Shown here: piece by piece, positions 5,781 through 59,811 of the stretch | Layout of the letters: each line of letters begins with the position of its first letter | Position numbering within the stretch: position 1 is the first letter of the stretch | From: Callorhinchus milii | Lineage: Eukaryota | NCBI RefSeq assembly: GCF_018977255.1 | Contig: NW_024704742.1 | Location: 4,342,001 to 4,406,000 of the forward strand | Length of the DNA stretch: 64,000 nucleotides | Reading direction: 5' to 3' | Translations under genes and position numbers: made by a program | The notes under the pieces: generated by a model | The model's database searches: none | Seen by the model: only the letters and a program-made list of their open reading frames with translations | Told to the model about the DNA's origin: nothing

Positions 5781-5907
5781 TCCACAGATTATTCCGCCAT
5801 GGGACCACTGACGGGTGGACTGGAAGATATGAAGTCAAACTTAAATCCTGCAGCGGTTGATATAGGGACCAGCGTCTCAGTTCCTCATTCTTATCCCATT
5901 GTAACAG
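5781..5907 (+). CDS. PAX5: Pax5 coding exon (equivalent to human exon 7), 127 nt, phase 0 to phase 1
   Basis: Acceptor gtgtttgcag|TCC and donor ACAG|gtaagg. Translates [43 protein letters not shown], matching recalled human PAX5 [44 protein letters not shown]. Confidence 0.95.
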
Positions 5908-6793
5908 GTAAGGGGGTATAGCCATTGGTATTATGTGTGTGTGTATTGTCGTTGCCATTCTGCCATGCTAATGGACTTGTGAAATACTGACGAGTATTAC
6001 AACAGACCAAAGCTAATGTTGAAGAAAGATATTCAAGAACTGGCCAGAGTGCAATAGCAATAGTGTGAAATGCAGTCATTGCACCTTGTCTCCAGTGTGC
6101 AGTCGCTTTCACCACGAAAACCATTTAGAGGCTGGTGTTGTGAAGGGTTGGCAGGTTTTTCGTTCGTTCTCCCTAGCTTTGGTGGGGGAGCAACAGTTCC
6201 TTGGATTTATTTAAACAGAATTCATTGCCTAAAACTTCGGCTTTCTCGCAGAAAAAAAGCTGCTCAAAGAAGGAGGAATGAGTAGAGAGAGTTAAGCAAA
6301 GGATGTATAATGAGCTACTCTGTCATTCCTGCACCCACGCCCATGCTACTATTTAACCATGCTGGTGGGAGGGACAGAGCAACAACAGAGACTAAGCAGG
6401 TACTGGATGTATGCTACATGTGAGAGATCCTTTAAAACCAAACGCGCAGCCCCAGGTGGAGGAGCAAGCAAAGATGAAAAGAGAAGAGAAGATGGGAAAC
6501 ATCAAGGAGTAGTGACCCAAAAACTTGGGTTTGGAGTAGATTGTCACAGGAAGGCTGAGGGAGGTAAGTAGTCTAACAGTCATGACATTAGCAAATCTAC
6601 ATTCAGTATTGCTGTAGCTTAAATACCTGTACTAGAAAAACGAGCGCACGGGCATTGCACAGAGGAAATGTAAAAGAGTGTGGATGTACTAATATCTTTA
6701 AGGTGAAAAGTGGCAGACAAAGGTCTGAAAAGATTTACAAAATGTGCCTGGGAGATAAAACCTTGACTCAGTATAAACAATACTGGACGGTTC

Positions 6794-6870
6794 TGTATTT
6801 TGAATCAATGTATTTTTAAAATGGTTGAGTATATAAACTAGATTTTAAAAATACATTGATTCGAAATACA
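6794..6870. repeat. 77-bp near-perfect palindrome (29-bp arms), MITE-like
   Basis: TGTATTTTGAATCAATGTATTTTTAAAAT (6794-6822) versus ATTTTAAAAATACATTGATTCGAAATACA (6842-6870), one mismatch. Confidence 0.9.
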
Positions 6871-7344
6871 TGATGTGCAAAGTGCACTGGGCAACACATG
6901 GTTGACAATCCCTTGGATTGGGTTTCCGTATAGAATTGATGACCTGATAATCTGTCTTCAATGCCTCAAAGATTTTTCACGCGTTCTTTACAACGCCTGT
7001 GTGTAGAGGGATGCTGCTGCTAATTTAAATGACTCAGTGTAGAAGTGAATTCATTTGGGATTGCGGTCAGGCTGGGCATTGGAGTCTAAGGAGTGGCTGG
7101 CTTGGAATAATAATAATAATCCTTGCATTTGGTATCGCGTCTTTCATATCAGGAGGGCGTCCCAAAATGCTTCACAGGATTTACCGTGAACAACTACAAC
7201 AAAATTACATTTGTAAAGCGCCTTTCACGGCGGGAGGATGTCCCAAGGCGCTGAATAGTCAGGGATCAGGACCCGAGCGTGGGGGTGGGGTGGGGACAGG
7301 GTTGGGATGAGGGAGGGCAGAGTGATACGAGGGCGGCTGACCAA

Positions 7345-7585
7345 TTTTATTTGGGGTCTTGTTGGGTAGAAGACTGGGAGCACCTCCCTTCTCTTTTCAA
7401 CTAATGCAATGGGATATTTAACGCCCACCTGAATAGACATACGAGACCTCGGTTTAGTATCTCATCCGAAGGCACCCCTGACAATGCAACCCCCACCCCA
7501 CCGCGCCCCTCCCAGCACTGACTATTTGAGTTCAAGCCTCGACATGGGGCTTGAACCCGTATCCTTCTGACTCAGAGGCGAGAAT
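7345..7585 (-). mobile_element. Deu-domain-type SINE
   Basis: Reverse complement of the head (cttgaacccgtatccttctgactcagaggcgaga) and central domain. Confidence 0.7.
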
Positions 7586-9804
7586 AGCTGGTCTGTCAAG
7601 ATGCACTGACATATTTTCCACTGACTGCCAAAATAACAATGGCTATAGTTTTTTAATTGGGGAATCCCGTAGAATAACCCCGCAATGTTTAAGTTTCACT
7701 GTGACTGAAGGGGAATAAACATGAAAAAATTATGATTATTAGCACGCGAGATAATGATTTACGACATTTGTTATGAAGTTGCAAAATGCTGCATAGTCAT
7801 AGTTGTAAAATGCTGTATGTTCGTCAGCCATAATTACTACAGCTATGACCTATAACAGCTGTCCTGTGATTTTTGGCGCGGAAATCCCAAGCAGTTAATT
7901 ATAAACATGCCAATGACATAGATACATGTAAAATAGCATGGTTTGGGTCATATGCAGGGGATTGAGTATATTATTCTTTCTTACAAGCGCTCCGGGACTC
8001 TACCCCGTGTGAGGGACGCTATATAAATATAGCAATTTGTTGTTGTTATAGTTTTCGCATGGTAAGATTCTTTTATTGGGCGACCCTGTTGTTAAACATT
8101 GCGTTCTAACAGTGCCTCAGAACAAAATGGCTGCTGGTTCTGCATCCAGTTGTCAGGTCACCGCTGACATCGCTTCTCGTGCATTACGAGAGGCGTGCAG
8201 GACATTACACCCGTGACTTCCTGTGGAAAACATGTATGGGAAGCGGCGGTTGCAATCATCTGATGACCCGAAAAGTAACCATCTTCTGTGTCGGAAGCCA
8301 TGTATCCTGCGCAAAGGTATAGAATGGTTTCAGAGGAGTGGTGGCCAACCCATGGCCCATGGGGGTGGGGTTGTGCGTGAGTCTGTCAAGAAGTGACCCA
8401 CCGCAAATTCACACTAGTCTACGCAAATCTGTGTTAAATCAATATTTTGGCTCCAGTAGCTGCTGAGTGACAATATTAATGGCGTTGCCATCAGTCAAGA
8501 ATTATTCAATCAAACAGGATCGTCTATATATCATCTCTTTTTGTAAATAAAAGTGCAAAAAATGTGTGAGGTTATCACATATCAAACGATATTAGCTGAA
8601 TAATTCATTTGTGTTACCACATTCCAACAATTTTAGAAGATTTATTTTTTTCCCCTCACATCTTGTCGAGGTTGATTTCCTAATCTCCCTTTGTGGGGTA
8701 TGTTCAGCATGTTACAATCTCTTCTTGGCCTCATCACAACATACATCCCTCTTCCTCAGTCAAGTAATGTTGTGCATATACGTGTTGCTTGGCTATTAGT
8801 ACGTTGATAATAATAATCCTTGCATTTGATATAGCGCCTTATCATGTCTTCAAGATGTCTCAAAGCGCTTCACAGATATTTTGATAGACTCAAATATTGC
8901 TTTGTACATGGTTAAATGGTTAATCTTGGAAATGAGTCTCTCTCTCCAACCTGGCTGCTGTTTTCACTTTACATCTGAAAAAGAAGGCTCGTTCCAGCTC
9001 GAGTGAAATGAGAGAAACAGGAACAATTGAATTTCAACAACTTGTAGGTCGTGCTGCAGTTCATAAGCTTTGCTTCCATTTGCAAGCCAATGACATAGCC
9101 ATGCTGTGTAAGTGCTGCAGTCAGCAGTCTCAAAGGCTCTTGATTGTTACTAATTACCAGCAGATACAGTTCCCTGGCTCGGCTTGCTGACTTCAGCTAA
9201 GTCCCATCAGTTTGAAAGGACAAAGTGACAATGAAATTGACACTTCAGCAGTGTTCTCCAATATAGCGCAAGGGAGATTGACAAACCCGCAGCCAGCTTC
9301 CAGTTTAACTGGCCCATGAGTCAGTTTGCATTAAGAACTTAGGAGCGAACAGATCAAACTGTCGACTCGCCGCTCAGGAGCGTATAGGAGAACGTTCTGA
9401 GCCTAGTGAAATCTGACATAAGACTTCTGTGGCTTTGGGGGGAAAAAAAACGGTATTCTATACCTAGATGTTCTTTAACGTTGGGAATGCTGGAATGGTT
9501 TATCAATCTATTACTTTGATAGGTTGTATGCAGGAGCTGACTGCAGTCCTGCACAACTGAGTTACTATAATAATATAATAATATAATAATAATCCTTGCA
9601 TTTGATATAGCGCCTTATCGTGTAATCGAGAAATCTCAAAAAACTTCGCAGAATATACTGTAAAGCGGAGTGACTGTGGGCGAAACTACAACGTGAAGTC
9701 ATTGAATATGAATGCTGTGCTTATCTGCATTAGTGCGCCAAGTACAATATGGTGTAAAGAATGCAATGCTTCATAACAGATTTGAGGATTGTGTGACAGT
9801 CTGG

Positions 9805-10210
9805 CTGCATTGGTACCACAGTCACTTCTGAGCCAGAAGGTTGTGTGGGTTCTAGCCCCACATCGGGACTTATAGCTCACGTAACCTGGCTGACACCCCA
9901 AAAATACATTGCTGGGTGTGAGCTGCATTGTTGGAGGTACCGTCCTTCAGATAAGACATTAACTGAGGTCGCAATCTGCCGCCTGAGCTTAAAAGATCCC
10001 ATGCACTCACTCTTCAGAAAGATGAGGGAGCTTCTCCTGGTGTCCTGCCCAAATAAAAATTGGTCACTCATTGTGTGTGGGACACTGACCCCCTGCATCA
10101 CCAATAGAATATGCAGTCACTACACTTTACAATGAATCCTGTGAAGTGCTTTGAGATGTTTTCCCGAAATGAAAGATGGTATATCAAGTGTAAGGATTAT
10201 CATTATTATT
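9805..10210 (+). mobile_element. Deu-domain-type SINE (SacSINE1/AmnSINE-like)
   Basis: tRNA-like head, then ggaggt.ccgtccttcagataagacattaa.ctgaggtc...aaagatcccatg..cac...ctcctggtgtcctg, recalled as the DeuSINE central domain. Confidence 0.7.
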
Positions 10211-11649
10211 TAAATGTCATCAAATCTGTTGCTGATCAAATCTGTTATTCATATTGGTGGATTTATTTTCCAGGGTGTAATAATCCCTTCCAAAATAATA
10301 ATAATAATAACAATAATAATTTAGTCACTCAATCCATAACTGTTTGTAGGACACTGCTGTACATAATTGGCTGCCGTTGTTTTGTCCAAAAAATATACAG
10401 TCAATTCACTTTATAGTATATTCTGAGAAGCGCTTTGAGACGTCTCGAAGATGTTCGAAGGGAAAGAGTTCACACTAAGAAATTAATGGCAAAATGCAAT
10501 GCTTCTTATCAAATTAATAACATATTTAATAATTATTAAATCTCATGACACAATGCATTTTTTTTTAACTCTTGTGTCGTTTTCTGCTCAGTTTACTGTT
10601 CATAGACATTGTTGATACTTTACTAGAAATGTACATTTTGTAGTTAGCCTGTTAGGGAATATTTCATTTCCTGAGTCATTTACTGATTCCTGGGACCATA
10701 CAGTTTTGTTAGCTGTGCATGCAGCGACTTAAAAGAAAATTTAATCATAAGTAATAAACAAAATGACTAAAATTCTACGTATTGTGATACGGTGTAATGT
10801 GTTAATCACTAAATAGCTGAATAGCATAGACCAGAAAGGCCCCAGGCTTTATTCCCTTGCATCTGTATTATACAATAGAATTTACATTTATAGAGTGCCA
10901 TACATGTTGGGGGATATTGCAGAGTGTATCACACAGCTGACTGGGCACCTAATCGGGGGTTGGGGAGCTGAGGAGGGTGGGGTGACATTTGCACTTGCCC
11001 AGGTTTATTTAAACCAACTTCAGTTCTCTAAGCTTACATCAGTTAAGTTTTTCTGATAGCATTTCTGCCCCAATCCCTGTGAGTGGCAGGCAACTCTCAA
11101 ATCTCCTGATAAAGTCAATGGCATGGTTCAGAATTCCCAAGCCAGACTCCTCCGGAATGAAAAGTTGCTGCAACATCTCAATCAAAGCAACTTGCTGAGG
11201 TTTCCAAGTGATCAGATAACTTGTGAGGCTCTGAATTTCGTAGATCAGAAATGAAGTGATTTTGTTCTCTTTGCTTATGAGGCATCACTTTGTGACAGCT
11301 TGGCTCACTTTACAGCATTCCTGATTTGTGGCTCACAAGATTGTGGGATCAAACCCACAATGGGACTTAAGTTTACACTCTAGATTGAGATTTTATTGGC
11401 TGGTTGGAGGTACTGTATTTCTGTATGAAATGTTAATTCCTAACTGTCTGTTCAGGTGGACGTTAAAAATCCCATTGCAGTATTTGAAAGCTCAGTTTTC
11501 CCCCCCACCTCTGTAACATTAATAATCCTTGTATTTTTGCATTTGATGTAGCACCTTATCACGTCATTGAGACGTCTCAAAGCGCTTCACAGAACATACT
11601 GTGAAGTGATGCATTTTGTGGGCGAAAATACACAATGAAAATGCACATT

Positions 11650-11955
11650 GCCTCTCTCCGCTCTGCATTCTGAGACTCTACTTCCCTTGACAGGCCTCAG
11701 ACTAACCAGAATTCTGCAGCTCATGTCCTTTCCCGCACTAGACTCCGTGAGTCCATCACCTCCATTCTCACTCGGCTCCACTGGCTCCTCAGTCCCCAGC
11801 TCTCAAGATCAAAATTCTCACCCTAACGTTTAAATCCCTTTACGGTCTTGCACCATCCTACCTCTGTGACCTCCTCAAAACCTACAGGCCTGGTTGCTCC
11901 CTCCACTTAGCGGACTGCTGCACATCCTCTGCTCCACCCGCTCTACCATCAGGGT
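11650..11955 (+). mobile_element. L2 3' fragment
   Basis: ccagaattctgcagctc...ctccactggctc...tttaaatccct motif (QNSAA / LHWL region). Confidence 0.75.
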
Positions 11956-12789
11956 TAGGCTGACATGATAAGGCATTGCGAAAATGGAATTTCTGTCTTT
12001 CACTTGATGCAGAACGGTTAACTCCTCACTTGCTGTGGGTTATTGACTGCAGGCGAGCATAGACAGACTTGAATTCTGGTGGATAGAAGGCAGATTATCC
12101 TAAATCTGAGAAGCACAAGTTAAGAACTATGCTGAGATAGGTGAAACATTTTGTAACCCACTGACCTCTGTTCTATAAACTGTTCTAGAATGGTAAACAC
12201 TCAGTTACAATTTTTCCGCTTACCAGTTTGATGGGCACAACAAAACTATACTGGGAAAAAACGCGATTACAAGTGTTTGTAAAAGACTGTTAGAAGAGTA
12301 GCATCCCCAAGAAAGCTCAGCCTTATTTGTCTTTGACAGCAATGATAATTATTGTGTACTAAGGCGTATGCCTATCAGTCAGTGAAACAATATTGTGGCT
12401 ATTTGGAGCAGTCTTCAGACAAAACTTGTCTTGTTTACATGCTCAGTGCAGGCCATGCAGAACGGTGGACGTGACGAGGGTGACCTCAGACAGGCTAGAG
12501 TCCATCTCCTTGCGACCATGGAGTAGATCTGGGCTGTGGATGTGCGGATTGGCAGTATAAGAGTTATTAAGATGTAAACATTATGCTTACATCAGGAACA
12601 CAGAAACTGCTGAAGTTTAGCACTCAGTCTATAAACAGCTGAATGACCTTGTCCTATTCCATGCTTTCTTATGTTCCTAGAAACCCAATGTTATATGTGA
12701 GTCTTGTGCAACATAAATGAGCTGTAGCAAACAGTCTGTTGGTTACTTATTTAAAACAGTAAATGATCAAGAAGGTGATGATGCAGTTA

Positions 12790-15305: not shown

Positions 15306-15455
15306 TATTGCTATTCACTATCAGTGATTGAACAAAGTAAATAACAGAGGGCAATAACTAACTGTGTGGATAATAGCATAGTAAGGTCGATATTGAGTGG
15401 GAAACTGCAAATAAGCTAATTTGTGTAATTCCTGTAGTTTAGTGGTTAGAGCACG

Positions 15456-15786
15456 AATAATAATAATAATATAATAATAATCCTTGCATTTGATATAGCG
15501 CTTTTCACGTCAGGAGGACGTCCCAAAGCGCTTCACAGAACACACTGTAAAGTGAATTGACTGTATATTTGTGGGCGAACGCGGCAGCCAATTGCGCACA
15601 GCAATGTCCCACAAACAGTCGTAGATTGAAAATGACCAATTTAATTATTGTTTTTGGTTTTTTGGAGGGATTATTATTAGGCGTGTGGAGTAAGGAAACT
15701 TGCCCAAGGTTTCGCCCTGCCTGGAATTGAACTCAGGTCTCTCACTTGCAAAGCGAGTGCTCTACCCACTGAGCTACAGGACTCCA
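15456..15786 (-). mobile_element. tRNA(Ala)-derived SINE, young subfamily, full length
   Basis: Head GGAGTCCTGTAGCTCAGTGG (A box), CTCGC-TTTGCAA-GTGAG anticodon arm, GTTCAATTCC (B box), L2-like stem-loop and (TTA)n tail. Confidence 0.92.
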
Positions 15787-16214
15787 CAGATGTAGTTGTA
15801 TGGCTATTAGTGCACTATTGCTATAGAGTGGGAGAGAAAACAGAGGTCTGTCCTGTGCATGTGCCCTGAGCTCCTTGTATAAAGTACTGATTACTGGCTT
15901 CCGAACAAGATCGGCAGCTCTTTTTAGTTGCCATAAATTGGTGGTACAGCAGAAAGCTTGATTTTCTTTGTCTCTCAGCAAGTAAAATAGAGTAGGATGA
16001 ATGTTTCCGCTGTCACTGGAGTGCGGTGGTGAAACTGCCTAAAACCAAACAATCAGCTTCCGTACCTCTGACTGCGACAAGTTTTCTGTTGGAAATGACG
16101 GAGACCCTAATTTTGGTTTGCGGTGGGCTGAAGAGCTGAATTGGTTTGCTCTCACTGATGTCCTACGCTCCAACCACAGGGAAGGTAGTGGGCCCCAGCA
16201 ACAAATCCCAAGCT

Positions 16215-22222: not shown

Positions 22223-22227
22223 TGATA

Positions 22228-34428: not shown

Positions 34429-34656
<228 letters not shown>

Positions 34657-38072: not shown

Positions 38073-38398
38073 GTATCTCACCTGCCTGTCCTCTCACTGT
38101 ATCTCACCTGCCTGTCCTCACTGTATCTCACCTGCCTGTCCTCACTGTATCTCACCTGCCTGTCCTCTCACTGTATCTCACCTGCCTGTCCTCACTGTAT
38201 CTCACCTGCCTGTCCTCACTGTATCTCACCTGCCTGTCCTCACTGTATCTCACCTGCCTGTCCTCTCACTGTATCTCACCTGCCTGTCCTCTCACTGTAT
38301 CTGCCTGTCCTCACTGTATCTCACCTGCCTGTCCTCACTGTATCTCACCTGCCTGTCCTCACTGTATCTCACCTGCCTGTCCTCACTGTATCTCACCT
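38073..38398. repeat. Minisatellite, 24/26-bp unit GTATCTCACCTGCCTGTCCT(CT)CACT, ~13.5 copies
   Basis: Direct tandem array; one 19-bp deleted unit. Confidence 0.97.
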
Positions 38399-39371
38399 TC
38401 CTAGTCTATGTGTTTCCATTTTAAGTGGCTGGGGTTATGAATGAACCTTGTAAATCTATTTATTTGACCCTTATTAAGAAGGCGAGATCATTATTAAATC
38501 TGAGGGAAAGACTGACTGTTTACACTTTTTACAGTGGAGCCTTCTCTTTAAGTGACATTCCTCCTGCTCTTTACATTCACGCACATTACTGATCCACGAT
38601 GATCATTAGAAATCATTGTAACTATTTGTGGATCTCCGCTTATGTAGGTCTATACGGTATTGTGGCTGTCTTTGCATGGGTGTATGTGTGTGTAGTGTTT
38701 GGGTATATGTTTATATATATATAAATTACTCATGTAAGATGTGTGTGTATGGTACTTGGATATTAATATGCGTTGTATATATTGTGTGGATTGTGTGCTT
38801 ATACACATAGTGTGTGTGTATATGTATATATCTATACTGTATATTGTTGTGTGTTTATAATACGTCACTGAGTTAAAAAAAACAGCTTTCCACAAGTAGA
38901 ATATCCAACTTATCAGTATAAATATCAGTAGAACTGACAAGGTTACAATATCCAGCTGTTTTGATTGATTTTCCTTGACTGCAAAAGCAATAGAAACAAT
39001 CATCATTTATAAATTGAATGCACGCTTTTGCATGTCAGTGACAGAATATGCCAGCAGCGAGACAGAGGTATCTCCTCTCGTCAGCCGACCGGTCACCTCT
39101 GCCTGTGGAGGGAGTCAGCGATGCCGGTGGCTACCACACAGGAAATGTTACTTCTGGTAAACGGAGTGGTGCAGGGGTTTGCAAACTGGCTGTTCCTGGG
39201 AGCTGTGTTTAAATCAAGCCCAGACTGATGGGATGAAAAAATGTGGTGCGTCTGTCAGGCGTGGATTTGCAGCAGAAACCTGTCCTTATGTCAAACCTAA
39301 ACTGAGTCTGACTGAGAAAGGGGCCGGTCATTGATTGTGTGACATATTGTGTGACTGAGCAAGCAGCAGGT

Positions 39372-40702: not shown

Positions 40703-41345
40703 TCAGTGAGTGTGTAACGGTCTGTGAGTGTGTGCAACACTCAGCGAGTGTGTGTAACTGTCTGTGAGTGTGTGTGACTCTCAGTGAGTGTGTGTAACTG
40801 TCTGTGAGTGCGTGTAACTGTCTGTGAGTGCGTGTAACTGTCTGTGAGTGTGTGTAACTGTCAGCGAGTGTGTGTAACTGTTTGTGAGTGTGTGTAACTG
40901 TTTGTACAACGTGTGTGTAGCTGTCAGCGAGTGTGTGTAACTGTCTGTGAGTGTGTGTAACTGTCTGTAAGTGTGTGTGACTATCTGTGAGCGTGTGTAA
41001 CTATCAGTGAGTGTGTTAACTGTTTGTGAGTGTGTATAACTGTCAGCGAGTGTGTGTAACTGTTTGTGAGTGTGTGTAACTGTCAGCGAGTGTGTGTAAC
41101 TGTCTGTGAATGTGTGTAACTGTCAGAGATGTGTGCGTAACTATCTGTGAGTGTGTGTAACTGTCAGAGAGTGTGTGTAACTGTCAGAGAGTGTGTGTGT
41201 GTACCTGTAGGAGACGTGTGTGTGCGTGTGCACCTGTAGGAGACGTGTGTGCGAGCGCGCCTGTAGGAGACATGTGTGTGTGTGTGTGTGTGCGCGTGCG
41301 TGTGTACCTGCAGGAGACGTGTGTGTGTGTGTGTGTACCTGTCAG
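40703..41345. repeat. Minisatellite, 20-bp unit GTGAGTGTGTGTAACTGTCT (~24 copies), grading into a (GT)n-CCTGTAGGAGAC array
   Basis: Direct tandem arrays. Confidence 0.95.
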
Positions 41346-41601
41346 TGTAACAGTCAGTCTCAGTCTTGAGAGGTGGAAGTGTCCTTGAAGCTGTTTGCAA
41401 TATTCCAGATGTGATCTATATAACATTAGAATAACCTCTTTCAACCCGGAGTCAACTTCTATTTTAAACCACTCTTCCCTTAGTTTTGTTGACAGCAGTT
41501 TGACATTGTCCGGAAACTTTCAGCGAATGACGGTAATCGCAGTCGGCTCCAGTTTCTGCTCCAGCCCTACTGCCGGCACATCTCTTTGTGCGTTCACATC
41601 T

Positions 41602-41934
41602 TAATAATAATAATAATAATAATAATCCTTGCATTTGATATAGCGCTTTTCACGTCGGGGAGGACGTCCCAAAGCGCTTCACAGAACACACTGTAAAGTG
41701 AATTGACTGTATATTTGTGGGCGAACGCGGCAGCCAATTGCGCACAGCAATGTCCCACAAACAGTCGTAGATTGAAAATGACCAATTTATTATTGTTTTT
41801 GGTTTTGGAGGGATTATTATTAGGCTCTGTGTGGAATAAGGAAACTTGCCCAAGGTTTCGCCCTCTGCCGGGAATTGAACTCAGGTCTCTCGCTTGCAAA
41901 GCGAGTGCACTAACCACTGAGCTACAGGACTCCA
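41602..41934 (-). mobile_element. Same SINE, full length, candidate ATCTT target duplication
   Basis: Near-identical to the 43819 and 51890 copies; ATCTT at 41598-41602 and 41935-41939. Confidence 0.92.
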
Positions 41935-43049
41935 ATCTTTACAACAACGACATTTATATCGCGCCCTTCACGCCTCATGGCGTCTCGGAGCGCTCTTACT
42001 GCTTTTTGATGCAACGTACTCTATGTTTATTGCCATTTTTGTCCACCTGCCAACGCTTGGCGCTTACGTTGAATCTCATGGCCACAATTTGAACGAAAGA
42101 TATGGGTCGCTTTCCAGATTTCACCCTGTAGTTGCTGAGATGGGAGCGTTGGAAACGCCGGGAGAATCCAGGAGCTTTCAGGCCAATTGCGCTGCATCTA
42201 GGTTCACCCCAGCTAACTTACCACGAACCAGATATTGACCCCAGGGTTTTGCACAGTTACATGCTGTAAGTTGTCCAATGGGGTATTTGAGGGGAGCTTC
42301 ATAATAACAGGAGACCTTTGGTTCCATGAGCTCGGAGGCTGCGCTAGAAATGACGCACACAAAAATGGCCAACATCCAGATCATCAGCTGACATCATTTC
42401 CTGTGCGCTGTGCTTCTTGCACATGTGTGTGGACCTTCCTTTTCGGCCACACCTTCGGTCACCTTCCCCCCCCCTCCCCCCAGCTTGGCCCTGGGATCCG
42501 TTACTGTGAAGCGCTCTGAGACACCGTCCGGCGTGGAGGGCGCTATATTAATCCAAGTTGTTGTGTTGTTGTTGTTGTTGTAGTAGTGAGTGGCCCAGTG
42601 ACCACAGTGGTGACCTGATCACCTGAAAGACAGCCTTTTTTTTTGGTGTGCAAAGCTGGCTGGTCACACTGGACGCTGGGGGTATCGAGCTTCCCATTCC
42701 CACAGTTCACAGTAGACGTGTGCTCTTCAGTGAAGCAACGCTATGATGTGGTAGTGGTGGGCGGTGAAAACTCTATCGCTGGCTTCTCCTGTACACAGTT
42801 GCGAACGTATTTGTTTGGCAAGTGTTTTGGAGTTGCTTTACATGGGTATGTGTATTCCAGGGGTAGTAATTTCTTCCAAAAAGTAAAAATAAATTGGTCA
42901 CTCGATCCACGACTGTTTGTGGGACGCTGCTGTGCGCAGTTGGCTGCCGGGCGGAGTGATGGTTTATCAGGAGTTTACTTTATCACATTATGATACATGA
43001 AGAACTCGTGTATATTATATTTGAATACATTATATAATAATTTTATTTT

Positions 43050-44640
43050 TAACCTGCCCACAGAGCTTGGGTACCGACACATTTTGTGATATGAATAGAG
43101 TGAGCAGGGCACACAGAGCAGACTCTAGTGAAACTCCACCAGCCACTACCTCCAGACAAAGCGATTCCATTTATCACTGCCGTCTGCTTTCTATTTCTGT
43201 TTGCAATCCAACCAACTAATCTTCCGTTAATTCCATGAGCCGTAATCTTCATTAAAACCTCACGTAGTGAAACTTTATTCAATTCCAGTTAAAAACCCAA
43301 GTGAATTATATTCTTTGGGCAGCTCTCATTTACCAGTTTAGTTACTTCCTCAAAGAATTCCCGTGGATTTATAAGGCATTATTGTTTTTAAACCCATAAT
43401 GACTATTCCTCTCAGCTCTTTCGATGAGCATTGATAATATCCCATAAGTAATTTTCTCAAGTATATTTCCCATTGCAGATATTAAACTAACTGGTCTGTA
43501 ATTTCTGGGCTCATGTCTCAATCCTTTATTGAATACAGGATAACATTTGCTCTATCCTCCAGTGTTTAGGCACAGTTCCAGTGTTTACAGAGCTCCGAAA
43601 ATATTAACCAGCGCCTGAGCTATTTATCTTGCATTTCCTTGAGGATCCTTGGGTACATTAATTTGATCCCAATTGTAGATATTTCAATTCTCAAATTCTT
43701 CAAAGCACATGTAGTACTGATACCTACTATTCTGATTCAAAACAACTGGTTCCAGACAGTCTTATTTTGTGAAAAATGTATTCAACAAATTTGCCATCTC
43801 CTTCCATAATCGCTTTCTAAAAAAAAAAAAATCCTTGCATTTGATATAGCGCTTTTCACGTCGGGAGGACGTCCCAAAGCGCTTCACAGGACACACTGTA
43901 AAGTGAATTGACTGTATATTTGTGGGCGAACGCGGCAGCCAATTGCGCACAGCAATGTCCCACAAACAGTCGTAGATTGAAAATGACCAATTTATTATTG
44001 CTTTTGGTTTTGGAGGGATTGTTATTAGGCTCTGTGTGGAGTAAGGAAACTTGCCCAAGGTTTCGCCCTCTGCCTGGAATTGAACCCGGGTCTCTCGCTT
44101 GCAAAGCGAGTGCTCTAACCACTGAGCTACAGGACTCCAAATCTAATTTATTACTTGAAGAATCTATCTGGTCATTAGCACTCTGCTTACTGCTAACACA
44201 ATTCAATAAACTCTTCCGATCCCACTTGCACAATGTGTTTCTTTGGCTTACTTACTTTCTCTAATATTCCCTTTGGTTAACTCAACTCATTTTGTATAGC
44301 TCGGTGCTCAATACTTTCTATTTGCTTGTATGTTTTAAGTACCTTTGCTTTTAGGTTACTTTTGAATTTCTTATTCAGCCACTTCGTCTTGGATTTGTGC
44401 TTCTCTTTTTCCTTTCCCACAAAATCCTTTACCGCTTCACTGAAATGGACTCAAAAGAAATTCTATTCGACTCTTTTGTTCCGTTCTGCTTCCTGTTTTG
44501 TTTCGTCAGCAGGTGTCACGCAGAAACACTTTATCTGACTTATGAGTATTCCAAAGCCGGATTTGAGTTCCACTTCTGCATGCACCTATGCATGGAAATT
44601 TCCGTTCTTCTGCAATGGAGTGGGCGCTCCTTCTCTGGAG
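43050..44640 (-). mobile_element. Degenerate CR1 internal fragment, interrupted by a SINE at 43819-44139
   Basis: LMKITAHGING.L.GWIAN..RKQ..VING and EMANLLNTFF motifs, with a YRPVSL-like aactaactggtctgtaatt. Confidence 0.75.
43819..44139 (-). mobile_element. Same SINE, full length, nested in CR1
   Basis: Near-identical body; homopolymer tail instead of (TTA)n. Confidence 0.92.
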
Positions 44641-48954: not shown

Positions 48955-51299
48955 AACAACAACAACAACAACAAGATTCCATTTATAGAGCGCCTTTCAC
49001 GTCAGGAGGACGTCCCAAGGCGCTGCACAGTTGGGTCATGACCCGAGCAGGGGGGAAATGGTCAGGGTGAGGGGAGGGAAGGGAGGGAGAGAGGAGGGGG
49101 AAATGGTCAGGGTGAGGGGAGGGAAGGGAGGGAGCGAGGAGGAGGAAGAGAGTCGAGAGGGGAGCTGAAGGCACGGTCAAAGAGAAAGGTTTTGAGACCG
49201 GCCTTGAAGGAGGAAAGGGAGGAAGCAAGGCGAAGGCACTGGGGGATGGAGTTCCAGAGCCTCGGGGCTGAGAGGCTGAAGGCCCGACCACCGATAGTAG
49301 GGCGGTTGGGGCGGGGGACGTGGAGCAGACCGGAGCCAGAGGAACGGAGGGTACGGGCAGGTAGGTAGGGGGATAGTAGGTTGGAGAGGTAGGAGGGAGC
49401 AAGGCCGTGAATGGCCTTGTAGGTGAGGATGAGGATCTTGAAATCAATCCTCTGGGGGATGGGGAGCCAGTGGAGGCGAGCGAGGGTGGGAGTGATGTGG
49501 TCCCGAAGCCTGGTGCGGGACAGTACACGAGCTGCAGAGTTCTGAATGACCTGCAGCTTGTGGAGGGAGGTGGCGGGAAGGCCGGCGAGGAGAGAGTTCC
49601 CATAGTCCAGCCTTGAGGTGACAAAGGCGTGAACCAGGGTTTCAGCAGCGTGAGGGGTGAGGTAGTGCCGTAGTCTGGCGATGTTCCGGAGGTGATGGAA
49701 GGCGGTGCCAGTTGTGGTGCGGATGTGAGGGAGAAAGGACAGCTCAGGGTCGAACAAAACGCCGAGGTTCCTGACTGGCTTTGAGAGGTGGAGAGTGCAG
49801 CCTTGGATGCTGATGGTGTCAGCGCCTGAGGTGCGGAGGCGCTGACGTGAGCCAATCAGGAGGGCCTCGGTTTTTTGCACGTTGAGCTGAAGAAAGTTGT
49901 CTCTCGTCCAGGACTCGATGTCGGACAGGCAGGCTGTCAGGACATCGGTGGTCGTGGAGTTGAGAGTAGAGGAGGAAAGGTAGAGTTGGGTGTCATCCGC
50001 ATACATGTGGAAGTTAACCCCATGTTTGCGGATGATGTCACCAAGGGGGAGCATATAGAGGGTGAAGAGGAGGGGACCGAGGACAGAGCCCTGAGGGACA
50101 CCACATGAGACAGTACGGGGGGTGGAGGAGAAGCCATTCGTTGAGACGAAGTGAAGACGGTGAGAAAGGTACGACCTAAACCATTCAAGGACAGTGCCTT
50201 GAAAGTTGAGGTGGGAGGACAAGCGGTGGAGTAGGATAGTGTGGTCGACCGTATCGAATGCTGCCGATAGGTCGAGGAGGACGAGGAGACAGAGGGAGCC
50301 CTGGTCACAGATGGTCAGGATGTCATTGGTGACCTTGACCAGGGCAGTTTCTGTGCTATGAGCAGCACGGAAACCTGACTGAAGGGGTTCAAAAAGAGAA
50401 TGGGTGGAGAGGAAAGAGCGCAGTTGGGAGGCGACAACTCTTTCCAAGACTTTGGAGAGAAAGGGGAGGTTGGAGATGGGCCGGTAGCTTGATAGCTGCG
50501 ACGCATCAAGGGAGGGTTTTTTCAGGGTGGGCGTGATGATGGCAGTTTTTAATGGAATGGGGACAGAGCCAGAGGAGAGGGACAGGTTTATGATGTCAGT
50601 GATGTGTGGGACAAGAAAATGGAGCTGGGAGATAAGGAGTGGAGTGGGGATGGGGTCAAGGGAGCAGGTGGTTGGTTTTAGGGATAGGATGAGTTCAGTG
50701 ACAGAGGGTGGGGAAACGGGTACGAAGGTGTGTAGGGGAGGATGGGTAGGAGTCGGAGTGTGGGAGGGAAGGGGTGGGTGGTGGGTGGAAGTTGGAGGGG
50801 AAGTGACCGCGGAGCGGATTCCCTTGATCTTGGATTCAAGGAAATCCAGCATCTCCTCGCAGTGAAGGTTGGAGGAGATGACCTGCGCGGGGTGGCGGGG
50901 GGGACGGAGGAGTCGGGATGTGGTGGAAAACAGTAGCCTGGGGTTGTTCTTCGCCTCCAGGATTATCCTGGAGTAGAAGGACGACTTGGCCGAGGCTAGA
51001 GTGGAGCGGTAAATTTTGAGGAGGTCCAGCCAGATTTGTCGGTGGACCGTTAAGCCGGATTTGACAAAGGTGCGCTCAGCAGCCCGCACCTGGCATTTCA
51101 GTGAGCGGAGGTGGGTGGTGTACCAGGGGGAGGAGCGGGAGTAGGAGACAGTGCGGGAAGTGATGGGGGCAAGAGTATTGAGTGTGGAGGAGAGGATATT
51201 GTGGAGGAGGGAGAGAGGAGAAGAGGGGTCGGTGAGGGTTGAAGGCCAGAGGGAGAGGAGTTCAGAGGAGCCAGAGGGAGAGGAGTTCAGAGGAAGGGC
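48955..51299 (-). mobile_element. Young 5'-truncated L2-clade LINE with 3' stem-loop and (TTG)n tail
   Basis: Uninterrupted RT frame, 3' end AGCGCCTTGGGACGTCCTCCTGACGTGAAAGGCGCT followed by (TTG)n, and candidate AACAA target duplication (48955-48959 / 51300-51304). Confidence 0.95.
49107..51269 (-). CDS. L2 ORF2 fragment: reverse transcriptase domain plus C-terminus; endonuclease lost by truncation
   Basis: 660-aa ORF with [50 protein letters not shown] (49992-50003) and LHWLP. The frame stays open upstream of the listed GTG (..[34 protein letters not shown]..). No genuine start codon. Confidence 0.9.
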
Positions 51300-51388
51300 A
51301 ACAAACTGGAATTTGGCTTATTTCATTCTGCATTACAGTTGAACTATAATAATCATCCTGACATTTAATATACATTTGATACGTATCA

Positions 51389-51889: not shown

Positions 51890-52229
51890 AATAATAATAA
51901 CAATAATAATAATCCTTGCATTTGATATAGCGCTTTTCACGTCGGGAGGATGTCCCAAAGCGCTTCACAGAACACACTGTAAAGTGAATTGACTGTATAT
52001 TTGTGGGCGAACGCGGCAGCCAATTGCGCACAGCAATGTCCCACAAACAGTCGTAGATTGAAAATGACCAATTTAATTATTGTTTTTTTTTTTTTTGAGG
52101 GATTATTATTATTATTAGGCTCTGTGTGGAGTAAGGAAACTTGCCCAAGGTTTCGCCCTCTGCCTGGAATTGAACTCAGGTCTCTCACTTGCAAAGCGAG
52201 TGCTCTAACCACTGAGCTACAGGACTCCA
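51890..52229 (-). mobile_element. Same SINE, full length, nested in an older L2-type tail
   Basis: Near-identical body; flanks read gaagggcaccatata / tatataaatacaagttgttg. Confidence 0.92.
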
Positions 52230-52469
52230 CAGGACTTATATAAATACAAGTTGTTGCAGAGCAAGTCTTTTTTCCTATTTGGTTCAGCTTGTTAAGGGGT
52301 CCAAGAACCTCTGACTGAAGGGCGCTATACAAGTGTAATTTGTTGTTGTTGTTGATGCTGCCACAGAGTCCCTGAGGGGAGCAGTAGTGCTGGCAGACAT
52401 TGCTCCCAGTGCACTTTCATCACTCACTTGCCTGAGGTTCCACATGTACACTCTACAATTGATCCCATA

Positions 52470-54410
52470 GAGATAATCGAACCATGTGTGATTATCCTTG
52501 TGGGATTAATTGGCCTTCAAATTCCAATTTATTTGGCCGTACAAAGAGGGGGGGGTGGGGGGGTAATAATTCTGCTGTGCGTAAATGGATTGAGCCTGGC
52601 ATTGGGAGTTTATAACAGGCATTGTAACCATGCACCACCCAGAGGGTCTGTAAATTCACTGCCTGTCAGACTACAATGCTCCATGATGTCCACTATGCTG
52701 CTATCTGTACTGCACGCAACTTATCCAGGCCTTTGAGCTACTTAAAACCTCTTGCACTCGTTAGAACTCGATTCTTCAGTTTACCAATAATTGGGGTCTT
52801 TATTTCTTATTCGTCACTTTCATTAGCTGTAAACGTGTGCCAGCAATTTACAATGAGCCACGTAGACTATTAAATTACAAACTGCAGCACCTACTTGATA
52901 CTCCCTGGAAATGCGCTGGGAAATTTATTGCAAATGAAAAAACAAACGGTCCATTTGAGACTTAATTAATTGGTAATAATTAAACATTTTGTGCGATTCA
53001 GTGATAAGGGATATATACTTAATAGTCTATACATCCACACACAGTATAGATCCACTATATATTTTATATATATATACACAGCATAATCATATAGTAAATG
53101 AATTCATCTTAAAATTCATCCGTTTGATGTTTATTAAAGTGCTCTTCCTGGGACGTCTCATCTTAGTTGATGATTGAACAGTTCAGCTGTCAAGAATTAT
53201 CTTTGATGGACATTTCCATACAAGGCCCTTGCTGCTGTTTCCTCGTGCATTGATCTGGTTTAGTTTTTATTCGGCTCCTGCCTCTTTTCTATACAGCCTC
53301 GCTCTTTGCAAAGGCTGTTCGATATGCAGAATATTTCGGGGGAAGTGAGCAATTCTGTCACTGAGCTGATGGTGCTCAGTGACTCCTCGAGCTCTCCGCT
53401 GGTCTGTACTGCAGGAGCCTGACACCCTGACCACTGAGGCATAAAAAACACAGAATTGGAAGCCTGAGCCTGTCAGACTCCAGTGCATCCCCCGAGAGAC
53501 TGAGAGCAGGAGGGGAAGGAAGAAAATCACACAGCGAAATGTCGGCTTGCTTCAAATCATTTGAGCAGGCGTGCAGCTGATGACTTTAAATTTTCCGTTG
53601 TGTGCTGATTAATATGCACAGCCAGGAAATTTGCTATCACCCCCGTCTTCCCCCAACTAAATCAAAGCAAAAAAAAAAGCTGGGGATAGCAGTGGAGCAC
53701 TGCTGGATGAAGTTTGGCAAACATTGTGGAGGGAAAGGAGCTGGTCTGGCAAAATTCTGGAGGAAGCCACAAATATTTAATTAAGTCACTAAAGTGAATG
53801 CAAGTAATGGATTTTTAATGTTTCAGGGAGTAATCATGTTTACCTGGCTTATGCTAAAATGTTTATTCTAATTGGTTTATGGTACAAACAGTGTAAACCT
53901 CAGGAGTGAGCTATTTGCATCAGGTTAAAGCCCAGAATTCGTGAACTAAAATTGGTGATATTAATCCTCACGTGTGAATTTGAAAAGGCTTCTGGTGCTG
54001 CTGATGGGGGCAAAGAGCAGAGGGACGAAGGAGAAAGAGAATAGAAGAGGTGTGTGGAAGTCGGTGCAGAGAATATCTTGCCGACGCAGTGACTGGAATA
54101 TGGCACTAATTAGTGAGGCCAGTTGGGTGGATTGTTAATAAATCTCAAGTTATTTTTGCAGCATCTTTCTCACATCAACAAGTACCAGCTGTTCCGCCTG
54201 ATATAGTAAAATTAGTGACGTTTTGAGCTTTATGCAAAAATAAAACTGGTAATTGCAAACTAAGACGGGGTGCATATTGGTTATTAATGATGCTGCAGTA
54301 CATAATATCAAATTATTTCTCACCAGATGTGTTCCTATTGAGAGATCTCCTATTGTAGGACAACCAGTCACTAATTATCCTGAGTGTCTTTAATGTCTTG
54401 ATTAACGCCT
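52470..54410. promoter_or_regulatory. Candidate cluster of conserved non-coding enhancers upstream of exon 9
   Basis: ~2 kb without recognisable TEs; GGATTAATTG, TAATTAATT, CCTGTCAG (twice), and octamer ATTTGCAT at 53913-53920. Confidence 0.4.
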
Positions 54411-54419
54411 TCTGAATGT

Positions 54420-54819
<400 letters not shown>

Positions 54820-54929
54820 TAGCAATAGTGCAACCCGGGAATTGTTATCACCTTGTGAAGACGCTTATGATAATATTCTGCCGTTCCTGACAGTGCCTCT
54901 GTCATTGAGACTTTGCTGTGCGTTCTAAT

Positions 54930-55500
54930 AAGAGTGAGGTGATCTGATCATCTGATGGCCATTTGGATCATTGTGTCTGTGCTGTCAGTACCGATGTTTC
55001 TAAGCAGCCCTTACATTAATCCCACTTTCCAGCTTTTTCCCTCTATTCCTTAATATTATTCCTGCTCAGAATCGTATGCACTTCCCTTTTGAACAGTTCT
55101 ACCTCTCCAGTCACAATAGGCATTTGAAGCAATGAATTCTAAACCCGAATACCACTCAGTGGGAATGAAAAAATTCTTCTGACTTCTCCCCTATTTTTTC
55201 TGCTAACTATGGCCCCTTTGACTTTTGATTCCCCAAGTGAAGGAAATCCATAACCAGCCTGTTATGCCCCAACAGTACCTTGAATTTCTCTATCATATCA
55301 ATCTCCTGTGCTCCTGTGGAAAAAGGTCCAATTTAAGCAGCCTGTTTTTAAATGTAAATTGCCTCACACCTGGTATCAACCTAACCAATCTACCTTCTCT
55401 ATTTTCATTTCCTTCCGGTAACGAAAACTCTTGAACTGAACACAATACTCTCACTGTGGCCTCACCAATATCCTATACAATTCCAACATAACTTCCTAAC
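54930..55500 (-). mobile_element. Degenerate CR1 3' fragment
   Basis: ggccatttgg...ctcctgtggaaaaaggtccaattt...aactgaacacaatactc..tgtggcctcaccaat (LVRP.LEYCVQF read antisense). Confidence 0.7.
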
Positions 55501-55526
55501 TTCCACGCTCCGTATCCCAGGCTTTG

Positions 55527-55950
55527 GAGCCTGTCTCAGTGGTAGCACTCTCGCCTGTGAGTCAAAAGGTTGTGGGTTCAAACTACACATCCGGACACGA
55601 ACTCACAAAGTCGAAGGTGACGGTTTAGTGCAGTGCTGTGGGAGGTGCCATCCTTCAGATAAGATCTTAAACAAAGGTTCCATCTGCCTGTTCAGGTCAA
55701 TGTTAAAGATCCCATTACATGACTTGAAAAGTAAAGGGATTTTCTCCCAGTGTCCTGGCTAACAATCCTCAGAAACAATGAATTATTTGTGCCATGGTTG
55801 TTTGTGGGACATTCCTGAGTGCAATTGGGCTGCTACATTTGCCTATAAAAACACAATACGGCAAATACACTTTACAGTATTTCCTGTGAAGCATTTTGGG
55901 TTGTCCTCCTGACATGAAAGTCGCTTTAGCAAATGCAAGCATTAATATTT
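55527..55950 (+). mobile_element. Deu-domain-type SINE
   Basis: Same head and central domain as 51389. Confidence 0.75.
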
Positions 55951-56120
55951 TTATTTCCCATAACCTCATTTTCTTGCTTGATAGCCTTTTGTATCTGCCC
56001 TCCCATTTTTATATATTTGTGATTCACAGTGTGCTTATCAGGGTAAAAAAAATCACTTTTACCAACCAGTCCAGAGGCCACGAGCCTAGTCTGCTTGACT
56101 GATAGAAAGTAGTTTTGGGG

Positions 56121-56138
56121 GGCTCAGTAGAGGGCAGA
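56121..56138 (+). promoter_or_regulatory. Second CTCF-like motif
   Basis: GGCTCAGTAGAGGGCAGA; one mismatch to the core. Confidence 0.4.
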
Positions 56139-56282
56139 TTTCAACTCTTCTCTGCAGAAATATCATAACAAAATATAACAGAGTCCAAGGTAGGGCCTCA
56201 AATGACCAAATAATATTGCCTGCCTTAGATTAAAAAAAGGTGCTGAGTTGCGAAAAGAAATCAACCACTTACTTGGAGGGTG

Positions 56283-56300
56283 TGCTGCCACCTGCTGGTG
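56283..56300 (-). promoter_or_regulatory. CTCF-binding motif
   Basis: Minus strand CACCAGCAGGTGGCAGCA matches the core CCASYAGRKGGCRS exactly. Confidence 0.6.
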
Positions 56301-57181
56301 ATAATGTATGCCGATGTTAAATAAGGAACGCCGCAAATTGTAGTCTTAGTATAATATAATACACTAAAAAACCATGATCTAATACTTATATCATTTTACA
56401 GTATATTCTGTGAAGCGCTTTGAGACGTCTTAGAAGACGTGAAAAGCGCTATACCAAATGCAAGGATTATTATTATTATATATGGGATGGAATGGTGTAA
56501 GTGGTCACTGGTGCAACGTCACCAGGCTTGCCTGGATTCAATAAAAATCAGGAAACATCCAAACATTTTCATCAGTAAAAATGTAATTTTTAAAAAAAAA
56601 TTGCTGGAAGGTGAAGAATTCAGACAAAAATGAATCAAACCACCGCTGGAGCCTTAACAAAAGGGTCGAAGGTGAGGAAGAGGACTTTAAAAACGGCCAC
56701 TTATAGTGAGAATGACAGGTACTTTCAAAAAGGGGCAATGAATGGAGATAAATTATTATAATGGTTGATTTGTGGACTCCATATGTGAAAATTGTCGTGG
56801 AACAAAATTCAATAAAAAAATCAGCAAAAATTAAAAAAAGATAATCTTTGTATTTTGAATATAGCACCTCAACATGTTGATTAAAATGTCACAACGCGTT
56901 TCACAGGATTTACTGCATGGGTTTTCTATTTGTGGGCAAATTGTTTAATCTCTGCTGGTGCATGTTCAATCCTGATAATTACTTATCAACTTGTACAGTC
57001 AACTCAGTATGACTCCATGAACTAGCTGGAGCCCATTTGGACACAATTTGAGACCTTTTTTTTTTGTCAGCCGGGTGTCTGACACGCGCGGAAACCCATC
57101 ACCAATCTGAAGAGTATCGAAACCAAATTGAGAGCTCTACAGCCTACGTCTTACAGCCTACACGTGTAAATTCCCATATAT

Positions 57182-57514
57182 TGGAGTCCTGCAGCTCAGT
57201 GATTAGAGCGCTTGCCTCACAAGCTAGAGACCTGGGTTCGATTCCCGGCAGGGCGAAACGTTGGGCAAGTTTCCTTGCTCCACACGCCTCTGCTTATCTA
57301 GCAATAAGAAGGAACCCTCGATTGGCAGATCAATTTTCCAGCGGTAATAATTCTTTTTAAAAAAATTCATTCAATCCACGACTGTTTGTGGGACGTTGCT
57401 GTGCTCAATTGTCTGCTGTGTTTCGCCCTCAAAATATACAGCCAATTCACTTTACAGTATATTCTGTGAAGCGCTTTGAAACATCTCGTATCAAATGGAA
57501 GGATTATTATTATT
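57182..57514 (+). mobile_element. tRNA-headed SINE (older subfamily)
   Basis: TGGAGTCCTGCAGCTCAGTG...GGGTTCGATTCCC head, shared body and tail. Confidence 0.88.
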
Positions 57515-58252
57515 GGAATGGAATGCACACTCTATTCCAGTGGGATGCATCCTGTTTACCTAATTCAGGCAGGTGTATGTGTCCCTATTAAAATTAACGG
57601 TCCAATTGTGGATGATTTTAGGCTAAAATCTTGTGCCTGGTAATGTCAGAGTGGAACTATTCCTTCAAGCTGGGAAGTCTTTTGAAAATGATCATTTTCG
57701 CTAAAAATGTGCTTAAGGTCTGAAATGAGGTCTTGTGGGTGGTTCTAAATTGAAGCATTGCATCAACATTTTTTGTCACCTCAGTATGAGCATCCATTGT
57801 CATTACTGGATTACAAAAACATTCATGCATGCTCACATAATAGGATTCTCAGTTAAGCCATGCAAGTTTTTCATCCATGACTTGTCTATTGGGTAATTGA
57901 GAATGGTCAATACTGTCTCCATCAAGCACATTGGGCAAATAGCAAAAGAAGGACACTTGCCTGGATATCCTATTGTTCCCTGTCACATATTTTGGTTTCA
58001 AATTCATTTAAGGAACTAAATTAAAATATTCTATCATAACATCAATCATTTCCCATTTCTATTTTGAAGATGACAAAACCTTCCTACGCTTTGTGTGATA
58101 TCAGTTAGTCTCTTAACGTCACACATTTCTGTCCTTCCCATATGATGATTGATCAGTATGACTGGCCCTGCGTTATAGAACCTGCGTTAAATGCAATTTA
58201 GGCATTTGGCAATTGTGTCCTGTTTGTAATGAGAGGACAGTGCAAGCGTAGA

Positions 58253-58455
58253 TAATAATGGCAATCCTTGCATTTGATACAGAGCCTTATCACATCTTTG
58301 AGATGCCTCAAAGCGCTTCAGAGAATATACTGTAAAGTGAATTAACTATATTTTGTGGGCGAAACATGACGGCCAATTGGTCACAGCAGTGCCCCACAAA
58401 CCGTCGTGGATTGAGTGGCCACATTTTTTTAAAAGTGTTTATTACCCCCGGAAAA
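58253..58455 (-). mobile_element. SINE 3' half
   Basis: Tail and core. Confidence 0.82.
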
Positions 58456-58496
58456 GTAATTTTAGTGCAAAGTGAAAAGTACAGAGTATGGAGAAC

Positions 58497-59145
58497 TGGT
58501 AAAATTGCAATGTGAACTGAGTGTTTGAAATAACGCATAATGAATACAGTGCGAAAGTTCAAACTGATACTTTTAAAAGAACACTAAATGCAAGTAACAA
58601 AATCTAATGAAGAAAAATGATCCAATTTCATGCTCTTTGAATGTGATAACTCCTCTGCCATTTTAGCTCATTACTTTTAACTTGACATAGATCAAGATAA
58701 ATTTCTTTTGATGCATTGTTCCTGTTTCCTCACTGACACGATATGTGTATATTGAAGAATTTAACTCAAGATGACAGAATTCCCACTCTAATACACCTCA
58801 ACTATTTCAGCTTTCCTCATGTTTCACAAGAATATGAGGTTACTATGTACAAGCGAATGGTCTCGACTGCTAAACAATGAGGTCGTTCCTGTACAGAGGT
58901 CACGTCCTTTCGAGTCATCTCATTGTATGAAAGCGACTTCAGAGTTCTTGAGGTGGCGAAAGAGCGGCGAACGTGATTTATGTTCTGAATTATTCATTTC
59001 AGAGTAGGTGCTGCTGGACTAATTCAACAATTATAATGCCAGTGCTACCCACATCAGCATTTGAAAATAAATTATATGTTTGCCCTTTCACACTGTATTC
59101 ATTGTGCATTGTTTGAAACACTCGGTTCACGTTGCAATTTTACCA
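58497..59145. mobile_element. Non-autonomous DNA transposon relic with ~68-bp terminal inverted repeats
   Basis: 58497-58564 is the reverse complement of 59078-59145 with about 9 mismatches (TGGTAAAATTGCAA.GTGAAC.GAGTGTTT.AAA.AA.GCA.AATGAATACAGTG.GAAAG..CAAAC). Confidence 0.8.
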
Positions 59146-59184
59146 CAGGCTGCCATTCGATCTTCAGTTATGATCGTGTGTCAG

Positions 59185-59520
59185 CCTAGCACTGTCACCT
59201 CTGAGACGGAAGGTTTGTGGGTTCAAGCCCCACGTCAGGACTTGGAATCACATCGTCTAAGATGACACTCCAATGCAGTGCCGGGGGTGTACTGCATTTT
59301 CTGAGGTGTTGTCTTCGGCCGAGCCATTAAACTGAGGTCCCACCTGCCTGTTCATTCATTCAGGAGGATGTTAAAGATCCCATGGCACTATTCGAAAAGA
59401 GAAGGGAGTTTCTCCCGGTGTCCGGACCAACAATCCCCCAAATAATATTGGTCATTCCCTTCCTGGCTGTTTGTGGGACACTGCTCTGTGCAATTGGCTA
59501 TAGTGTTCACCCACAAAAAC
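59185..59520 (+). mobile_element. Deu-domain-type SINE
   Basis: Same head and central domain; truncated by the Penelope-like piece. Confidence 0.75.
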
Positions 59521-59525
59521 AGAGA

Positions 59526-59652
59526 GACGGAAGGTCATCGACCTGAAACATTACCGCACTTTCCTCTCTCCATAGATGCTGCCTGACCTGCTGAGTGTTC
59601 CCAGCGACTTCTGTTTTTATTTCAGATTTCCAGCGTTTGCAGTATTTTGCCT
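59526..59652 (+). mobile_element. Penelope-like terminal-repeat remnant
   Basis: aaggtcatcgacctgaaac...ctctctccatagatgctgcctgacctgctgagt..tccagc..ttctgtttttatttcagatttccagc, as recalled for chondrichthyan Penelope repeats. Confidence 0.7.
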
Positions 59653-59734
59653 CTTACTCAACGAAGTTGTCGAGTTATTATTATTATTATTATTATTTAT
59701 TATTATTATAACTGCACCTCTTGTTATCTTCCAG

Positions 59735-59811
59735 GTTCCCCATATTATTATAGTGCCGCAGCCCGGGGCACACAGCCAGCCACCCCTGCCACAGCCTATG
59801 ACCGTCACTAG
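59735..59811 (+). CDS. PAX5: Pax5 terminal coding exon (equivalent to human exon 10), to the TAG stop
   Basis: Acceptor ttgttatcttccag|GT. Translates (S)SPYYYSAAARGTQPATPATAYDRH*, the canonical Pax2/5 C-terminus. Confidence 0.97.

Follow-up and report, generated by a model that had tools for sequence, protein, structure and literature searches.

Introduction

Pax5 is the master regulator of the B cells that produce antibodies, and it also plays a role at the midbrain-hindbrain boundary. The present work deals with a stretch of 64,000 nt of DNA from the elephant shark Callorhinchus milii (the window; all coordinates given below are window positions), in which an original prediction had placed the C-terminal exons of this gene. 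According to our analysis the window carries the 3' part of an ordinary elephant shark Pax5, comprising its last four exons, and we estimate the probability of this reading at about 0.98.

The best described counterpart is the Pax5 of the mouse, the tail of which is described as disordered. Exons 8 and 9 of the mouse gene encode the domain CRD1 and exon 10 encodes CRD2, the inhibitory domain. Loss of CRD1 impairs B-cell development, and the combined loss of CRD1 and CRD2 leads to an arrest at the uncommitted pro-B stage. CRD1 was found to bind BAF, Set1A-COMPASS and NSL for activation as well as Sin3-HDAC and MiDAC for repression (all according to the available text of PMC10509461). For sharks, the accessible portions of the literature describe Pax5 expression in B-cell clusters of the nurse shark, which is lost in plasma cells (PMC10529500), and a CD79a promoter of the dogfish with predicted Pax5 sites (PMC4034164). 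Within the available part of a 2013 survey of the 1.4x C. milii draft genome Pax5 is not listed (PMC3759438); the present annotation includes it. Our literature search yielded no paper devoted by title to Pax5 of C. milii, no usable paper on skate Pax-5 and nothing on Pax5 at the midbrain-hindbrain boundary of sharks.

Exon Structure and Protein Identity

The four exons are located on the forward strand. Exon 7 (5781-5907) comprises 127 nt, enters in phase 0, leaves in phase 1 and is bounded by CAG and GTAAGG. It is followed by exon 8 (34472-34573, 102 nt, phase 1-1), exon 9 (54701-54787, 87 nt, phase 1-1) and the coding part of exon 10 (59735-59811, 77 nt including the stop codon TAG), which gives the phase series 0-1-1-1. 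The acceptors of all four exons read CAG and the three donors GTAAGG, GTGAGT and GTAAGT. The exons are separated by three GT-AG introns on the same strand, namely intron 7 (5908-34471, 28,564 nt), intron 8 (34574-54700, 20,127 nt) and intron 9 (54788-59734, 4,947 nt); of intron 6 the last 5,780 nt are within the window. The original prediction had proposed four short GT-AG exons of just these lengths (127/102/87/77 nt) which join in frame, and the boundaries together with the single open frame bear this out: the 393 nt of joined exons are open in frame 0 alone and encode 130 aa followed by TAG. The Pax motifs which it had quoted were mapped into these exons by a six-frame motif scan, on the forward strand at about 34.5, 54.7 and 59.7 kb.

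The joined peptide is, letter for letter, an exact suffix (residues 261-390) of a protein of 390 aa that bears the NCBI/UniRef/nr name "paired box protein Pax-5 isoform X2 [Callorhinchus milii]" (P0001 in the following); no difference was found. The claim that the exons represent Pax5 of an early-diverging jawed vertebrate is thereby confirmed. Exon 7, used alone as a query, led to a single protein with 100% identity among four candidates, which was again P0001, and covers its residues 261-302 with 100% identity and coverage. Exon 8 matched residues 303-337 at 100% in a tblastn search. The Pfam family Pax2_C (PF12403) matches exons 8, 9 and 10 colinearly at positions 28-59, 62-89 and 91-113 of the 113 profile positions, with E values of 4e-17, 2e-12 and 4e-4, the match of exon 10 being under the curated cut-off when taken alone. 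The product of exon 7 is the linker behind the partial homeodomain, and no Pax profile matched this exon in the Pfam search. By comparison with the mouse, exon 8 would supply the first half of the transactivation region, which is CRD1, and exon 9 its second half. The partition into exons 7, 8, 9 and a terminal exon 10, as expected of Pax5 orthologs (numbering after the accessible text of PMC10509461), was found in full.

When 120 homologs were compared with the window by tblastn, the sole matches outside the four exons were low-complexity noise on a long interspersed nuclear element (LINE). The regions of the paired domain, the octapeptide and the partial homeodomain gave no tblastn match within the window; exons 1-6, which would encode them, are expected upstream of it. 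P0001, which includes the window peptide, has the paired-domain family PF00292.

Exon sizes by themselves are weak evidence, because the forward strand contains 29 stop-free AG..GT stretches of 127 nt, 49 of 102 nt and 58 of 87 nt, and with dozens of such stretches per length the four exons could be suspected of being chance stretches stitched together. A strict splice consensus filter removed all of these stretches except the true exons 8 and 9, and exon 7 itself does not pass. The colinear Pax2_C matches, the exact match to a named protein and a spliced contig refute such a chance assembly here, so that its probability is practically nil.

The gene had further been called hidden from the track of open reading frames (ORFs). 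This is correct insofar as none of the four frames is among the 70 ORFs of at least 100 aa, the exons being too short for such a list. The word hidden itself was wrong, since the Pax5 gene and protein of C. milii are already known and annotated and display the standard anatomy of their family.

The Exon 9-10 Junction

Twelve sequencing runs are listed for the stretch, ten of which contain some of it and none of which is on record as RNA. Four of them (X1, X2, X3 and X7) were mapped over positions 54300-63900. Contig 1 of run X1 (1,347 nt) corresponds at its positions 1-331 to 59735-60065 and at 332-419 to 54700-54787, the exon 9 part with 0 differences. In this contig intron 9 is removed exactly, with 54787 joined to 59735. 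The remaining 928 nt lie outside 54300-63900 and would be compatible with the upstream coding sequence, for which 1,009 nt are expected. Spliced support, the lack of which had been named as a ground for abandoning the Pax5 model, is thus present as the exon 9-10 junction in an assembled contig. The depth of X1 is zero in 9 of 30 bins, eight of them intronic and one at the far end. Contigs of X7 cross the exon-intron borders, a DNA-like behaviour, and no splice junction was seen among the pieces listed for X2 and X3.

Pax5 Versus Pax2 and Pax8

Residues 200-390 of P0001 served as the query for a search with the C-terminal part, of which the best 120 of 1,618 proteins were examined. Ranks 1-73 of these are occupied by proteins named Pax-5 or unnamed, and the first Pax2, at rank 74 with 68%, is the Pax-2a of C. 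milii itself (P0074). A best match to Pax2 or Pax8, which the original prediction had regarded as decisive against its proposal, therefore did not occur. Over the window peptide, identity amounts to 96-106 of 128-130 residues for Pax5, 83-92 of 129 for Pax2 and 52-63 of 119-126 for Pax8, the Pax8 sequences having been obtained by a representatives search and a subsequent named search with one of its matches. Among the Pax2 proteins the distinct Pax-2a of the same species is identical at 92 of 129 positions; it has the Pax2_C domain in common with the window peptide.

For a comparison of diagnostic sites, 78 named Pax5 were set against 24 named Pax2, with 17 unnamed rows and P0001 itself excluded. 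Nineteen columns separate the two groups. The window is of the Pax5 type and differs from Pax2 at 13 of the 19, is of the Pax2 type at three and of neither type at three. In a tree of 33 rows built on the 130 window columns the window falls inside Pax5 with a support of 100/100, and the full-length P0001 (31 rows, 374 columns) gave the Pax5 clade the same 100/100. Approximately unbiased (AU) tests on the full protein rejected a grouping with Pax2 (p 0.00047) as well as with Pax8 (p 3e-6). The placement within Pax5 relative to the elasmobranchs has a support of 81/46, and the trees resolve no chondrichthyan Pax5 clade.

Several points weigh against the reading as the Pax5 gene of the elephant shark. 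P0001 may stem from the assembly that also supplied the window, in which case their identity does not prove each base independently. The exon 9-10 junction is the sole one of three that is covered, in one of four runs, and this run, X1, is only guessed to be RNA. Confined to the 130 window columns, the AU test rejects neither Pax2 (p 0.119) nor Pax8 (p 0.10). The named Pax2 rows are all chondrichthyan and the named Pax8 rows all from ray-finned fishes, with no C. milii Pax8 among the retrieved sequences. Finally, in the available part of a single-cell study pax5 is B-specific in two bony fishes and is not a B marker of the bamboo shark (PMC11372145).

The AU result on the window columns and the three Pax2-type sites, Ser at 366 among them, would suit exons of Pax2 or Pax8, or of a fourth Pax2/5/8 ohnolog, that had been mislabelled as Pax5. 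Ser366 is, however, common to the elasmobranch Pax5 rows. C. milii possesses its separate Pax-2a on a contig of 28.3 Mb, whereas P0001 is encoded on one of 139.2 Mb; in the Pax8 rows under half of the residues match, and both alternatives are rejected by the full-length AU test. A mislabelled paralog is largely refuted by these data and has a minimal probability. Judged by their sequence, the four exons are Pax5 and neither Pax2 nor Pax8.

Comparison with Other Pax5 Genes

In comparison with mouse and human PAX5 (BSAP) the exon partition is the same. The window peptide is identical to the Pax5 of Mus caroli and Macaca at 104 of 130 positions, and exons 8 and 9 are symmetric in C. milii and in mammals. 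There is no gap towards the mouse and macaque proteins over exons 8-10. The difference in length is confined to exon 7, which in C. milii is one codon shorter (42 instead of 43 residues) and at the same time the most diverged exon (27/42). These lengths in mouse and macaque fit human exon sizes of 130/102/87/77. Where exons 9 and 10 meet, the mammals have Gly and C. milii has Ser, as in sharks and Pax2, and C. milii differs by four substitutions at near-invariant sites.

The Pax5 proteins of elasmobranchs (Carcharodon, Chiloscyllium, Amblyraja, Mobula) are identical at 96-102 of 128 positions and agree in the C-terminal end and the junction Ser. They share changes of their own (V301I, G322A and S327P) at sites where C. 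milii keeps the common residue.

Some ray-finned Pax5 proteins (P0036, P0051, P0058, P0081, P0091) carry a cassette of 29 aa between exons 9 and 10, the flanking exons of which align with those of the window. Other inserts were observed in front of exon 7, with 19 aa in amniotes (P0035, P0038, P0065) and 36 aa in amphibians (P0060, P0061). After removal of two pattern artefacts and of exact duplicates, 22 distinct lineage inserts were aligned to the corresponding intron of C. milii. For none of them, including the 29-aa cassette in intron 9, was the margin over the antisense and reversed-query controls larger than 2 score points, and no counterpart of these inserts was found in the window.

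Substitutions and Evolutionary Rate

At 4 of 60 near-invariant columns the window departs from the consensus (G294V, Q296H, S325N and P336H, the latter two in exon 8), and 83 of the 120 rows depart at none. His336 was found in one of 120 proteins, 117 of which have Pro, and was absent from 147 further representatives, of which 50 contain the motif. On the window columns, the branch of the window (0.16) is the longest end branch within Pax5. Such values could be taken for a decaying or relaxed Pax5 in chimaeras, with a C-terminal domain that drifts or is partly disabled. The exons are, however, free of stop codons and frameshifts, have canonical splice sites and are represented in a spliced contig. 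Elasmobranch Pax5 rows carry 3-5 near-invariant-site changes of their own, and the branch measures 0.07 when the full protein is used. Accelerated evolution was rejected, as none of 34 relative-rate tests was significant (lowest p 0.21). We therefore regard a decay of the gene as very unlikely. The four substitutions may rather represent ordinary lineage drift, as suggested by the comparable changes in elasmobranchs and by the rate tests, or alternatively an assembly error.

P336H and S325N are situated in CRD1, which is essential according to the mouse work, and are natural variants of interest in this respect. The holocephalan Pax5 is a useful outgroup for mapping dispensable residues of the regulatory tail.

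Predicted Function and Isoforms

Orthology predicts for C. milii Pax5 a role in B cells as well as one at the midbrain-hindbrain boundary. If the mechanism corresponds to that of the mouse, the paired domain would bind genes of the B lineage, and the disordered tail rich in Pro, Ser, Thr and Tyr, with CRD1 from exons 8-9 and CRD2 from exon 10, would recruit BAF, Set1A-COMPASS and NSL and thereby open chromatin. The same exon 8-10 tail would recruit Sin3-HDAC and MiDAC, by which chromatin would be closed, and the outcome of this cofactor recruitment would be the commitment of cells to the B lineage.

Exon 8 with its 102 nt and exon 9 with its 87 nt are both symmetric (phase 1-1), so that skipping of either or both would keep the reading frame. 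Isoforms of human PAX5 without exon 8 (delta-8) and without exon 9 (delta-9) are described in the accessible part of PMC9456430, and matching frame-neutral skipping events may be possible in C. milii.

A Candidate Second Acceptor in Exon 10

According to the available text of PMC4488758, the majority of splice events in Pax genes concern the C-terminal domains. In the human variant PAX2d the first 19 bp of the last exon are lost (PMC2689858, available part), and the same offset of +19 is found for an AG at 59752-59753 in exon 10 of C. milii Pax5. From this possible second acceptor a shifted frame of 46 aa is open on the forward strand (59752-59893). If the site were used, a second protein would arise in which the CRD2/inhibitory tail is exchanged for a 46-residue, Pro-rich tail. 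Besides the open frame, it speaks for the site that exon 9 ends in A, so that the junction would read Met-Pro as in six Pax2-type tails.

Those six tails of the PAX2d form were found among 264 tails examined; all are unnamed and stand in a Pax2-type context, and the number of Pax5-type proteins with the +19 acceptor among the 264 was zero. Where the frames overlap, the shifted-frame tail and the Pax2-type tails agree at 10-13 of 20 positions, which is explained by shared DNA; past the main stop codon 0-1 of 17-20 positions agree. Moreover, a conserved Ser codon accounts for the AG, an open frame of 46 codons is expected by chance with p 0.29, and X1 contig 1, the only contig seen, uses the normal acceptor. 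Use of the +19 site is thus possible but unsupported, and we consider it unlikely. If true, the acceptor switch would be older than the split of Pax2 and Pax5 and would have lapsed in the Pax5 of bony vertebrates. A literature search for Pax2/Pax5/Pax8 splicing in amphioxus found no paper.

The Region Downstream of the Stop Codon

About 3.8 kb or more behind the stop codon are probably 3' untranslated region (UTR; 59812-63579, forward strand, at least about 3.8 kb). This reading is based on five X1 contigs that tile 59735-63579 with small gaps, up to position 63579, while eight intron bins have zero X1 depth. No AATAAA was found after the stop codon within the window, and the last X1 contig ends at a run of eight A.

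This last contig (63105-63579) has a depth of 371, compared with 40-73 for the upstream UTR contigs. The rise could reflect a pile-up at the 3' end, internal priming or a separate transcript; it was not taken as the transcript end, because contigs cannot show ends. Between 59969 and 63552, in the putative UTR, X1 departs from the window at about 17 single positions and by two small indels, and the coding sequence of exons 9 and 10 shows no difference. These differences are consistent with another allele or individual.

Introns and Repeats

With the Pax5 model the whole window is framed: outside the exons, positions 1-59734 are Pax5 introns, and the sequence behind 59811 is probably the 3' UTR described above. 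No neighbouring gene was seen in the window. Self-repeats cover 14,022 of the 64,000 bases and overlap none of the four exons. Intron 8 contains two minisatellites, with a 24-nt unit repeated 13.6 times at 38073-38402 and a 20-nt unit repeated 24.3 times, together with GT-rich variants, at 40710-41332; several spurious long ORFs are due to them.

Also in intron 8, in antisense orientation, lies a 5'-truncated LINE of the L2/CR1 type (48960-51317, reverse strand) with an open frame of 736 codons that matches RVT_1 (E 3e-37); no endonuclease family matched this element. About 20 older LINE fragments with 65-89% identity are found elsewhere in the window. A young short interspersed nuclear element (SINE) of about 330 nt, headed by a transfer RNA (tRNA) sequence, is present at 15450-15789, 41600-41936, 43800-44140 and 51890-52232 on the reverse strand and at 57178-57520 on the forward strand. 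Four of these copies are 93-96% alike and one is older, and about 40 partial copies were counted in addition. Five putative tRNA genes reported by ARAGORN and Rfam turned out to be the heads of these SINEs and were dismissed; Rfam found nothing besides them. The last 55 nt or so of the SINE match the 3' tail of the LINE at 87%, and a pair of tRNA SINE and CR1 is listed for the elephant shark in the accessible part of PMC3747384.

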